IMG/VR virus record: IMGVR_UViG_3300031673_000026
Location: 4,007-68,006 of that record
Length of the DNA: 64,000 bases
DNA from: a virus
Strand: one strand, 5' to 3'
Part shown: positions 9,760 through 29,335 of the stretch, one piece after another
Layout: the number at the start of each line of letters is the position of its first letter
Numbering within the stretch: position 1 is the stretch's first letter
Notes under the pieces: generated by a model
What the model was told of the DNA's origin: nothing
Database searches by the model: none
What the model saw: the letters and a program-made list of their open reading frames with translations, nothing else
Translations under genes and position numbers: made by a program

Positions 9760-9832
9760 TGCCGGCGCAGGGAATCGAACCCCGAATCAATCGGTTATGA
9801 GCCGATAGCCTTAGCCGTTAGGCCACACCGGC
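9760..9832 (-). tRNA. tRNA with CAT anticodon (Met or Ile2), CCA not encoded
   Basis: Acceptor GCCGGTG/CGCCGGC, anticodon arm ATCGG-CTCATAA-CCGAT, T arm CGGGG-TTCGATT-CCCTG. Confidence 0.9.
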
Positions 9833-25903: not shown

Positions 25904-27392
25904 ACTTATTGTGGTCGCGGCCCCCATAGGGCCGCACCTATCAGTATAAACATAAAAACGGAGAAAAAATGAATATTCCACGCTTACTTGAAAGATACTG
26001 GTTGCCGCACCTGGTCGGAATTAGCCAGGTAATTAGATTCGACGATGATCGTGTTGAAAGAAATATCGGCGACCCGGTGAAATTAATCGGGCTAAATCCG
26101 AAGCTTTGTCGTTGCTGCAACGAAGGCGAGCCGTGCTTAGATTACGATGTCCTTCAATGGGAAAAAAATATGCTAATCGTAACGACCGCGACGAAATGCT
26201 TGCTTTGCAATATGCAGGGAAGCGACTCGTTTGCAATTCACTTTTGTGAGAATTGCCATGCACCAATCGAACCCAGGGGTAAGAAATTTATGTATAGTAG
26301 TCAATATCGAGAGCTTGACGATATGGAAGTATGCGAAAAATGCTTCGATGATTTAGGCGGGGAAGAAGCAACGGGAAGTATTTTTGGTAAATAAAGTTAA
26401 AAAATATATAGGAGGAAAACATGGCACACGACGATATACCAGAAGACGACTACCAAAGTTTCCCCTGCAACTGTGGCGGGGAAATAAAGAAAAATGCGTA
26501 CGGGTATTGGGAATGCGATACTTGCGATTTTCGCAAGGAAGTGTAATATGCCCATGACATACGATGAAGCATTTGAATTTTTCGATAAGCACTATAGGGG
26601 CGAATGGCACTTCCCTTACCCAATAAAGAAGTGCGGAGGTGGCTGGAGCATGCTTTGCCACTCTAAAGAAAATCTATCAACATACGACAACAACAACCTG
26701 ACAAGGCTTGTTCTTAGGGCACATCACGAGGCTTACCGGTTACACATTGAAAGCGCGGGAAATAAGATGAAAATTGTTATCTACAAGCGCGTCAGGGACC
26801 CGGAGGAGAGGTATTACAGAAGGCACCCGTCGATAGAAGAGGCGATTGAACACTGGCTGGAGTGCGGATAATATGAAACGCAGTGAAAGAAAGCTCATGA
26901 ATAGAATCGCAAAAATAGGTGACCTAAAAGAAGAAATAGAAGGCTTCCTTTGGAAAACCAATTATGACTTATGGAAAATATTAGATGATAACGACCTGTA
27001 TGTTCCTAACATTTATGAATACAGGGTTGACTTTAACAGCATGGTTGTGTATTTTGTGGATGTAGGAAGCGGCGATGTAGTAACCAATAAGTACGGTGAA
27101 AGATTCGAGATCGATATATTGGGAATGTTAATGAAAAAATACGGAGGATGACATGAAGTATATACTGACAGAAAAAGAGTTAAGGCGATATGAAAAAAGG
27201 ATTGAGGAAAAGCAAAGCATAATTAACGGCCTATGTCAGCGCGTCTGCGATAGCGAGCCAATCAGCATAGAGGGCTGTTATAAAAACACCTGGGGATGTA
27301 TCTATAGTAGCGACCATAAAAACGAATGGTACTGCGATGAATGCCCTGTCCTAAATATATGCGGGAAGATAAAACATTTTTCAAAATAAAAG

Positions 27393-27421
27393 TTGAAAAA
27401 ATAGCAAAAATGTATTATAAT
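27393..27421 (+). promoter_or_regulatory. sigma70 promoter
   Basis: TTGAAA-17-TATAAT. Confidence 0.75.
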
Positions 27422-27438
27422 AGTAATATGAAAAACAA

Positions 27439-28132
27439 AATGATTGTCCAGGCAAATGCACTTATAAAATTCACGGATTCCCTCAGTTGCCGATCTGGAC
27501 AATCATTGCTGAGGGAGTCCCGTGAATAAGCAATCACTATCTTATGGCGTGGTTATTCCTTATGGAATAAGTTATCGGGTTCATGGCCGGGACGCAAGGT
27601 TATACCTTGCCCACGTCAACACCCAAAAAAAGAATAAGCAATCATACCATCTACAATCCAGAAATGGTCTCCCGGGAGGCGTAACATCAGACCTATTGCT
27701 GTCCCGGCGGACACCGTTAGTGCGAAACGGCTGTAGCGGCTTATTATTCTTACGTCTTCCAATAGGGGGCGTAGGGTTGCACTCTCAGGCCCGTACAAGT
27801 TACGATGTGGATGGTTACTTAAAGGAAGAGGCGGTAACGTCGAGACGACAGGTTGCAGGCTTGGCAACCTGCAACGGTCGGAGTAGGCACGTTTTAAGAA
27901 AGCCAATCGTAGTGCAGTTCTCTTTTCTCATTCCGGGGTGGAAGTCCCCGGGCTTCCTTTTAGTACTAATAATGGCGGAAGTTGTAGAATGCATTTCCTT
28001 AGCCGTGCGCGTGCCAGGTGGCAGGCATGGTCAACGGCGACATCAAGTAAGGAGTGTTCCACGGCAGCAAGGGTGGTTCCCGGTGGCGATTCTTTCGCTG
28101 CTGACGGTTCAATTCCGTCGCAGCCGCCTTTT
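27439..28132 (+). ncRNA. array of structured, partly tRNA-like RNAs / large ncRNA
   Basis: Consecutive multibranch folds; terminal T-arm GACGG-TTCAATT-CCGTC; the overlapping long ORF looks non-coding. Confidence 0.65.
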
Positions 28133-28468
28133 TATGAAATTTAACGGTAAGATATCATGACTAAAGAACTACTTAGAAAAGCACGGAAAGCACACATGTG
28201 CTATCGGTGCGAGTTTCCGATTATAAAAGGCAGCAGGTATTACGAGACTGTCGGCAGGTTCCCGTTGTACGATAAGGAAGAAGAGCAAATCGGCATTGAG
28301 TATTACCGTGAAAAGTGCTGTACTTTTTGTCACGACTTACCATCAGAAAAGCATGAGTGTGAGTGGATAACGGAAATCGATTATCAGGACTACGGGGCAC
28401 CCACAGGTTTTGAGTATTGCACGGTATGTTATACGAAAAGGGAAATACAATAATACAGGAGTAAAATA

Positions 28469-29335
28469 ATGGCAAATAGATTCATCGATACAAGTACATT
28501 TGACTCGCCGTCAATCCGGCGATTACCAACAAAATTTAAATTATTTTGGTTTTACCTCATATCCACGTGCGATCATGCCGGGATATGGTCCGTTGATTAT
28601 GAAATTGCCAGCATTCTTTGCGGTGGAAAAATAACAGAAAAAGACGCAAAGGAAAAAATGCATGGCAAATTCATTGAGATCGATAATGGGAAGCGTTGGT
28701 TTTTACCTGGATTTATTTTATTCCAGTACAAAACTTTCAGTTTAAAGCCCAGCATCGCCCCCCACTTATCAACAATAAATATCTTATCCCGTTATGGCTT
28801 ATGGGATGAGGATTCTCTAACTGTTAGGCAGGGGTTAGTTAACGGTTACCCTACCGTTACGGTAAGGGATAAGGATAAAGATAAAGATAAAGATAAAGAT
28901 AAAGATAAAGATAAGAACTATTCTCAAGAAGTAAAAGAAGTTGTAAGTTATTATTTTTCCACTCTGGATGCCGGGCAGCGGGAAAGATTCGAGAAAAATA
29001 GGGATAAATACCACGATGAAGCTGCAAAATTAATAAAAAATGGATTCACCGCCATTGCTATCAAGGCCGCCGTCCGGTTTGCCCGCGAGGATGTTTTCTG
29101 GAGGCCTAATTTCTTAAGCTTTTCTAAGCTAATGGCCAAAAATAAAGACGGGGTATTGTATATCGATGTTTTCCTGGAAAAGGCTAACTGTGAGACCAAG
29201 ACCCCAGGGACAAACAAAGTTACTCCAGGGCTAAGCCAAGCGGAAATCGACTATAATTACGGGCCGGAATACATCGAAGGGATGAACTACCAGCAATTCA
29301 AAATAATGAAGGAAAAGGAGGGGGGGGTAAAATAA
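28469..29335 (+). CDS. phage replication initiator protein
   Basis: N-terminal wHTH-like 'KLFWFYL..CDHAGIW', DK repeat linker, C-terminal 'D.FW..N.LS..KL'; upstream of DnaC-like gene. Confidence 0.75.
   Translation: MANRFIDTSTFDSPSIRRLPTKFKLFWFYLISTCDHAGIWSVDYEIASILCGGKITEKDAKEKMHGKFIEIDNGKRWFLPGFILFQYKTFSLKPSIAPHLSTINILSRYGLWDEDSLTVRQGLVNGYPTVTVRDKDKDKDKDKDKDKDKNYSQEVKEVVSYYFSTLDAGQRERFEKNRDKYHDEAAKLIKNGFTAIAIKAAVRFAREDVFWRPNFLSFSKLMAKNKDGVLYIDVFLEKANCETKTPGTNKVTPGLSQAEIDYNYGPEYIEGMNYQQFKIMKEKEGGVK
28868..28915 (+). repeat. (GATAAR)n hexamer tandem repeat encoding poly-DK
   Basis: Eight tandem GATAAG/GATAAA units. Confidence 0.9.

Follow-up and report, generated by a model that had tools for sequence, protein, structure and literature searches.

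Small RNAs of about 70-80 nucleotides (nt), processed from an early leader transcript, are known from the phages P1 and P7 (C4 antisense RNA) and P4 (CI RNA), and the C4 circuit of P1 includes a translational coupling of the genes downstream. The trp-type leaders use ribosome-dependent attenuation, with leader frames of a couple of dozen codons. GOLLD and ROOL are described as large, elaborately folded and often phage-borne RNAs without an assigned function. For the lactococcal phage c2 (Ceduovirus), published work describes a strong early promoter and PE1-T, a non-coding transcript with ties to replication functions; at c2-type origins the length and the sequence or structure of the transcript are said to matter (PMC7150918). 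Here we report on positions 27390-28160 of a 64,000-nt stretch of DNA from a soil phage, called the window, which makes up most of a 68-kb IMG/VR virus record (IMGVR_UViG_3300031673_000026). From its sequence alone this region had been proposed to hold an array of cloverleaf-like RNAs or one large non-coding RNA. There is a real feature here, which could be placed in no known family and is represented by two genomic copies plus fragments, and its first interpretation was partly right. The region has the look of a folded RNA transcribed from its own promoter, more than of a normal gene or of several tRNA mimics, and its core is, judged by sequence comparison, constrained as nucleic acid and not as protein. 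Our tentative preference is for a long structured early leader or attenuator RNA, which would be readable by ribosomes and would leave a stable RNA product.

Predicted promoter, leader and open frame

No gene with a family match was found at 27390-28156. The folded stretch forms a 0.77-kb gap between the genes of a 78- and a 98-amino acid (aa) protein, and the G+C content of 27390-28156 is 0.46-0.54 versus about 0.33-0.45 in the flanks. The sole genomic relative of the region is a syntenic 2856-bp contig, L071, which encodes the protein P0002. The strong promoter of the original prediction corresponds to a near-consensus promoter-like site of the sigma-70 type on the + strand (TTGAAA-17-TATAAT, 27393-27421, 11 of 12 matches), identical in L071. 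It is followed by a leader (27428-27530, + strand) with two interlocked helices, 27439-27451/27495-27507 (100% complementary) and 27475-27486/27509-27520 (92%). Folding is given throughout as a z-score against shuffled controls, together with the number of shuffles folding at least as well; for the leader z was -3.70, with 1/200 shuffles as good. The second helix carries in its 3' strand a Shine-Dalgarno-like GAGGGAG (27512-27518) and the GTG at 27522. Promoter and leader together are identical to L071 at 130 of 134 positions.

An ATG at the exact predicted transcription start opens a 33-codon upstream open reading frame (ORF), 27428-27529. Its TAA (27527-27529) overlaps the GTG start of the long frame described below; all 3 of its 3 differences to L071 are nonsynonymous. 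A second promoter ahead of 27658 (TACAAT, 27652-27657) was considered and rejected: it has no -35 element, and by eye its position is not conserved in L071.

The DNA alignment with L071 is a mosaic. Promoter and leader, a 5' core and a 3' block are conserved, the middle is largely replaced, and the diverged regions 27695-27796 and 27835-27930 flank a conserved island. Within the 3' block (27932-28156) 216 of 225 positions are identical. In the adjacent gene, by comparison with these 9 differing positions, 10 of about 49 synonymous sites are changed (Fisher p 3.7e-4), and the divergence of the block is about 5 times below the synonymous-site divergence of that gene, for which 10 synonymous and 2 nonsynonymous changes were counted.

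A frame of 212 codons that is not protein-like runs through the region on the + strand (27522-28160), from the GTG to a stop which overlaps the ATG of the 98-aa gene (ATGA). The frame is stop-free in the window (212 codons) and in L071 (179 codons), while the other five frames contain 5-18 and 3-15 stops, respectively. When the 636 nt of the window version were shuffled with dinucleotides preserved, no open frame arose (0 of 5000), and the 240 nt that are replaced in L071 are again open in the right frame (P 0.012). GAGGGAG stands 4 nt before the GTG, a spacing as in other genes of this phage, and the ATGA overlap with the 98-aa gene is kept in L071. The frame is clearly kept open and is therefore probably translated.

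Its content was compared with that of 39 genes of the phage. The codon log-odds of the frame were -0.053 versus 0.201 +/- 0.059 in these genes (minimum 0.075), which is 4.3 standard deviations below them and within the range of 9 antisense shadow ORFs (-0.03 to -0.18). The product would be very basic, with an isoelectric point of 11.4 and 3.8% aspartate plus glutamate versus 13.3% in the phage genes. Changes in the 3' block were 1 synonymous and 8 nonsynonymous, at a neutral expectation of 75% nonsynonymous, and of the changes listed for the RNA-library contigs presented below, 3 were synonymous and 4 were nonsynonymous. In the variable part, amino-acid similarity was not frame-specific (69 in frame versus 48 and 54 in the other two). 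Codon-position periodicity gave p 0.07 for the window and 0.63 for L071, in a low-power test in which small real genes of this phage often do no better. Among 5.8 billion clustered proteins the sole relative of the ORF was P0002 of L071 (179 aa, 60% identity), and when 1.84 billion representatives were searched exhaustively with HMMER, the sole gain was a weak repetitive match (E 2.7e-4). No relative of the product was found in Pfam, PHROG, NCBIfam, the PDB or the Atlas, and word-index protein searches with shorter forms of the ORF C-terminus and with a 68-aa ORF of the +2 frame returned nothing. AlphaFold2 modelling yielded a mean confidence score (pLDDT) of 33.1, with 203 of 212 residues below 50, which is weak evidence given the shallow alignment.

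These data bear on the explanation that 27522-28160 encodes a real, fast-evolving orphan protein with two hydrophobic C-terminal segments, whose folded messenger is incidental or tunes translation. The frame open in both phages, the Shine-Dalgarno-like motif, the conserved ATGA, a 108-nt insert that keeps the frame (see below) and a helix at residues 143-162 of the AlphaFold2 model agree with such a protein. The codon score, the excess of nonsynonymous changes in a best conserved block that is itself so little diverged, the missing frame-specific conservation, the near-complete lack of relatives and the low model confidence speak against it, as does a U-tailed RNA junction placed 29 nt before the stop of the frame. 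We regard this explanation as unlikely. If it were correct, the locus would be an early orphan gene of the ordinary kind, whose mRNA is heavily folded. The original prediction had named a translated and conserved 212-aa protein as the finding that would speak against it; the frame is kept open and probably translated, but it is not conserved as protein. As we read the comparison, selection acts on the DNA or RNA sequence, the frame is maintained without stops, and the amino-acid sequence is not under selection.

Folding and modules of the putative core RNA

Parts of the stretch were found in four public runs: a DNA run (X1), which is probably the source of the window, two RNA runs from separate studies (X2 and X4) and a run with the L071 form (X3). 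The putative core RNA as represented in the RNA libraries extends from 27658 to 28131 on the + strand. Three short X2 contigs tile 27658-27832, 27827-27977 and 27981-28131, with 5, 2 and 5 differences. The X4 contigs cover 27664-27834 with 6 differences, followed by unlike sequence, and 28067-28128 with 8 differences and unlike sequence on both sides. Contig starts in X2 and X4 are 6 nt apart (27658 and 27664) and have no loose ends; the DNA run X1 continues upstream. The second X2 contig spans the first terminator-like hairpin, and the last one ends at 28131, within a U-tract. As a weak hint, the contig ends point to an RNA of ~474 nt. The absence of X2 and X4 cover on 27200-27657 and of X2 cover on 28132-28600 was not counted as evidence.

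The stems listed in the original prediction are present in the sequence, and several of them are part of the minimum free energy (MFE) structures. The whole region 27520-28135 folds with z -3.53 on the + strand (0/20 shuffles) and z -2.67 on the - strand (1/20). At the 5' end of the core a conserved hairpin (AATGGTCTCCCGGGAGGCGTAACATCAGACCT, 27663-27694, + strand) is identical in L071. The following variable region 1 (27695-27796, + strand) is strongly diverged in L071 and of the same type in X2 and X4. For a further long helix, AAGAATAAGC/GCTTATTATTCTT, which had been thought to enclose three hairpins, both strands exist; no MFE structure uses it, and its 5' strand is located upstream of the RNA-library contig starts.

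A multibranch domain (27816-27965, + strand), closed by the helix 27816-27828/27953-27965, folds with z -3.59 (0/200). Within it lie variable region 2 (27835-27930) and a hairpin, CCGGGG-N7-CCCCGG (27933-27952), that is conserved. Here the earlier fold was right in its inner hairpin GTTGCAGG/CCTGCAAC, which is in the MFE structure, and in the CCGGGG hairpin; the proposed outer stem TTGCACT/AGTGCAG is not part of that structure, and the domain is closed by the helix given above instead. The equivalent domain of L071 has the same closing helix and CCGGGG hairpin with other inner hairpins (z -3.13, 1/200). The closing helix (27818-27828/27953-27963) is, by eye, kept in L071 with a C-G to U.G change. 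The changes of L071 at 27941/27942 affect only the loop of the CCGGGG hairpin and spare its stem.

The 3' part begins with a predicted long irregular hairpin (27981-28065, in 27966-28065 on the + strand), conserved within the 3' block. Two closings then compete. The block 27966-28133 can be closed by GGCGG/CCGCC, which gives the fold 27974-28128 of the original prediction (z -2.24, 2/200), or a compact three-way junction can form at 28066-28133 (+ strand; z -3.21, 0/200), with a closing helix that runs into a U5 tract. The arms of this junction are an 8-bp hairpin (28082-28102) and the hairpin GACGG-TTCAATT-CCGTC (28103-28119), in which a 5-bp stem and a 7-nt loop agree with the T-arm that had been recognized there; the TTCAATT loop presumably fits the T-loop consensus. 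In the model the closing helix with the U5 tract would be terminator-like. The change 28099 T>C, found in L071 and X2, converts a G.U into a G-C pair, and 28022 C>T in X2 converts G-C into G.U, by eye keeping a wobble pair. RNAalifold on the two genomic sequences gave -116.85 kcal/mol versus -101.3 +/- 5.8 in column shuffles that keep the conservation (z -2.71, 2/100).

In X4 a 62-nt three-way junction, 28067-28128, occurs at about 87% identity between wholly different flanks. Its boundaries agree with those of the junction predicted from energy alone, which suggests that the three-way junction with the T-arm-like hairpin is an exchangeable RNA end module.

The only true cloverleaf is found upstream of the core. 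Its MFE structure (27545-27618) is the four-way junction of the original prediction, at -32.3 kcal/mol and z -4.13, with 0/200 shuffles as good. Its arms have 7 bp and its loops 4 and 3 nt; an anticodon-type loop of 7 nt is missing. The 74-nt cloverleaf is contained entirely in an insert of 95 nt, which has A7 as its end and is flanked by perfect direct repeats of 13 nt (GAATAAGCAATCA, 27524-27536 and 27632-27644). L071 has one repeat copy and no insert, so that a 108-nt insertion/deletion polymorphism is seen (27524-27644, + strand), and the 108-nt segment is in frame with the ORF 27522-28160. Its arrangement is similar to that of a small mobile element with a target-site duplication, or to a deletion between repeats. 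The insert had no further copy in the window or in the viral contigs scanned, and none of the other parts of the region recurred within the window.

Searches for known RNAs gave the following picture. ARAGORN found no tRNA or transfer-messenger RNA (tmRNA) in the region, and a tRNA-Met at 9760-9832 is the only tRNA of the window. With Rfam 15 (4227 families) there were 0 matches at gathering score in 27300-28300, and the one match of the window was the same tRNA; the L071 region had no Rfam match either. At E<=10, 5 chance-level matches in the region were all far below threshold, and none was a tmRNA, RNase P RNA, group I/II intron, C4, Y-RNA-like, GOLLD or ROOL match. The best score within the tRNA clan was tRNA-Sec, with 18.5 bits versus a gathering score of 47 (E 1). 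By model, therefore, the region falls outside the tRNA, tmRNA, RNase P RNA, intron, C4, GOLLD and ROOL families. The T-arm-like hairpin followed by a helix strand recalls the T-arm beside the acceptor stem in tRNA and in the tRNA-like domain of tmRNA. Unlike there, an anticodon arm, a D arm and CCA are missing, 2 nt link the arm to the closing helix, and this helix runs into a U-tract in the manner of a terminator. An array of separate small tRNA-like RNAs, such as decoys of anticodon nucleases or Y-RNA-like species, as first proposed, could draw on the well-folded cloverleaf and on the 3' junction with its T-arm-like hairpin. We consider it very improbable: neither ARAGORN nor Rfam (tRNA clan or Y-RNA type, at gathering level) supports it, the cloverleaf has no anticodon-type loop and is absent in L071, one arm only is tRNA-like, and the X2 contigs tile the core contiguously and not as separate units. 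One large structured RNA of no known family is what survives of the original prediction, based on the missing Rfam match, conservation at the nucleotide and not the protein level, and the RNA-library contigs over the core.

Two further tRNA-related ideas were discarded. A tmRNA-like acceptor pairing of 27727-27733 with 28117-28123 is, by eye, not kept in L071 in its 5' strand. The idea of an attP site matching a host tRNA 3' end failed: a 21-nt pattern of the T-arm and the strand after it matched one genome contig (L072) in a coding-looking stretch without a tRNA, i.e. by chance.

Homologues were searched for at several levels. A blastn search of 27380-28160 against 50,697 phage records returned no match. 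Exact or degenerate patterns of the 3' junction, the 3' hairpin, the 5' core, the cloverleaf and the conserved island each had 0 matches in viral contigs, and the 5' core pattern had 0 matches in genome contigs. A metagenome scan provided no homologue beyond L071, and protein-guided locus searches of viral contigs, by the 98-aa neighbour and by the ORF alignment, found no relative. A search with the DnaD-like gene further downstream yielded 69 distant loci, none with similarity to the RNA by blastn or nhmmer, and a covariance model of the 3' junction run on these loci had its best other match at E 7.7. ORF-free gaps upstream of the DnaD-like gene were surveyed in 68 of the 69 loci (all but L064); in the six loci with the largest gaps and in L071, one tRNA was the only Rfam match.

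A proposed leader RNA or a possible autonomous RNA

A structured early leader or attenuator, as we tentatively prefer it, would work as follows. The gap would be one early transcription unit that heads the 98-aa gene, a DnaD-like replisome organiser and an IstB/DnaC-like loader. The transcript would start at about 27428, and its first ~100 nt would form the two interlocked helices, burying the Shine-Dalgarno-like motif and the GTG. In this phage only, the 108-nt cloverleaf insert would come next, then the G+C-rich modular core of ~474 nt, with the Y-shaped, U-tailed three-way junction and its T-arm-like hairpin as the 3' end. When the leader permits initiation at the GTG, ribosomes would traverse the stop-free frame and melt the internal terminator-like folds. 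They would be delivered by coupling to the 98-aa gene, which has no Shine-Dalgarno motif and overlaps the stop of the frame, and expression of the replication genes would follow. With initiation blocked, a folded RNA ending at 28131 would form, its 5' part would be trimmed, and a stable RNA of ~474 nt would result, which may have a role of its own.

The terminator-like folds inside a leader frame that is probably translated, and the downstream start overlapping the leader stop, are reminiscent of trp-type attenuation and coupling. Unlike in trp-type leaders, the frame has 212 codons, and the RNA core is conserved and modular beyond the needs of a terminator. Like C4 and CI RNA, the RNA is folded and in part tRNA-like, it lies within an early operon's leader, and there is a hint that it is processed at the 5' end; unlike them, its core of ~474 nt is far from their size, and it has no Rfam C4 match. 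With GOLLD and ROOL it shares a large and elaborate fold and phage origin without an assigned function, and it differs by the lack of an Rfam model match, by its two genomic copies, by the open frame it carries and by its position in an operon leader.

We are well aware of several observations that weigh against a leader or attenuator of this kind. The putative mature RNA 27658-28133 as a whole folds with z -1.81 (4/100), and its L071 equivalent with z -1.33 (13/100), whereas the pieces that do separate from shuffles reach z -3.2 to -4.1. By z-score the pieces do about as well on their reverse strands (-3.2 to -4.7), at absolute energies 4-7 kcal/mol weaker than those of the + strand. The previously noted hairpin 27750-27774 is found in the MFE structures, but the enclosing block 27663-27800 folds no better than shuffles (z -1.0, 33/200), and variable region 1 of L071 gives +0.6. 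Covariation was not above chance: 9 compensatory pairs in the two sequences compare with 8.2 +/- 2.5 in column shuffles, and 47/100 shuffles reach 9. Since there are just two genomic copies, the structure is unproven. One X2 difference, 28057 T>A, disrupts an A-U pair predicted in the 27966-28133 fold; two further differences near the ends of the same contig are unlisted. The terminator pattern scan did not call the 28066-28133 junction, because it is branched. Contigs from RNA libraries may include DNA, and starts, ends and strand are not provable from them. An open frame that is kept is what a real gene shows as well. The promoter match, the folds, the mosaic of conservation, the open frame and the missing coding signature are seen in the data; the start of transcription, its termination, processing, translation, the link to the replication genes and every kinetic step are inferred. 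Finally, a simple attenuator would not need a conserved modular core of 474 nt.

The core is larger, more modular and more tightly conserved than an attenuator would require, and therefore the explanation by an autonomous, trans-acting large phage RNA retains some weight, although we find it rather doubtful. It would be a new family (~474 nt, 27658-28131) with conserved cores, swappable hairpin domains and a 3' module bearing a T-loop, which acts on a host or phage partner, e.g. as a tRNA-like decoy or scaffold, and the open frame would be secondary. A weak hint in this direction is that the RNA-library contigs stay within the core and that their 5' starts are similar between the two studies. 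The modules recombine, as X4 shares 27664-27834 and 28067-28128 but not the sequence between them, and L071 shares the cores and not the variable regions. Constraint at the nucleotide level without a codon pattern, the three-way junction with its T-arm-like hairpin and the lack of a matching Rfam family fit as well. The explanation is weakened by covariation at chance level, by the weak z-scores of the whole RNA and by the failure of viral-contig, genome, metagenome, word-index and exhaustive protein searches to find a further homologue, and it leaves the stop-free frame, the Shine-Dalgarno motif and the ATGA overlap unexplained. In a variant that accommodates the frame, to which we give a similarly low probability, the locus belongs to a new family of ~0.47-kb modular phage RNAs that act in trans, e.g. 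on the tRNA-handling or replication machinery, yet are held stop-free for the passage of ribosomes. If this were true, a structured RNA together with its translatability, and not a protein, would be under selection, and the RNA would be stable enough to enter environmental RNA libraries.

By analogy to PE1-T of phage c2 or to ColE1 RNA II, the region might also be a transcription-activated replication origin or primer transcript. Its position is right before the genes of the DnaD-like organiser and of the DnaC/IstB-like loader, and it has a strong promoter and a folded, protein-unlike transcript. Distinct sequence types between conserved flanks among close relatives are likewise reported for c2-type origins (PMC7150918). 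According to the same source, c2-type regions have no ORF of at least 100 bp and no ribosome-binding site (PMC7150918), whereas here a 212-codon frame with a Shine-Dalgarno motif is kept open. The region is G+C-rich and not A+T-rich, and a repeat array in the DnaD-like gene, described below, offers an alternative origin candidate. No blastn similarity was found to any record of the phage collection, and the likeness to c2 is positional. We judge an origin transcript to be quite unlikely.

Should the leader or attenuator be correct, the locus would be a clear natural case of selection that keeps a long frame open regardless of the protein, in a sequence whose RNA is itself constrained as nucleic acid. 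It bears on how phages gate the entry into their replication genes, on gene callers that mislabel structured RNAs as orphan proteins and on the evolution of large modular RNAs by domain swapping. The T-arm-bearing 3' junction also recurs between other flanks and could be an RNA end module open to reuse.

Neighbouring genes and further elements

The region is embedded in a neighbourhood of early and replication genes, which includes RecT, an exonuclease-like protein matching phrog_10477 and several small cysteine-rich ORFs. Downstream follow, in this order, the 98-aa gene, the DnaD-like/replisome-organiser gene (phrog_2514, phrog_4880) and the gene of the IstB/DnaC-like ATPase (PF01695). The 98-aa gene lacks the GGAGG or AGGAG that precedes most of the neighbouring genes. 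The small early ORFs between 25969 and 28453 (141, 41, 78 and 98 aa) are rich in CxxC motifs, with CYRC...CCTFCH...CTVCY in the 98-aa protein. None of them has a Pfam family, and they possibly are zinc-ribbon-like proteins.

Replication origins are known inside initiator genes. Within the DnaD-like gene a tandem array of GATAAA (x7.8, 97% matches, 28868-28914) encodes a (DK)n run; by analogy it is a candidate iteron or origin site. At the start of the same gene, several short X1 and X3 contigs match solely a stretch of ~40 nt (28442-28481) at a depth of up to 77, with 6-7 differences and unlike flanks. This stretch may be a short element common to other DNA of the X1 and X3 samples.

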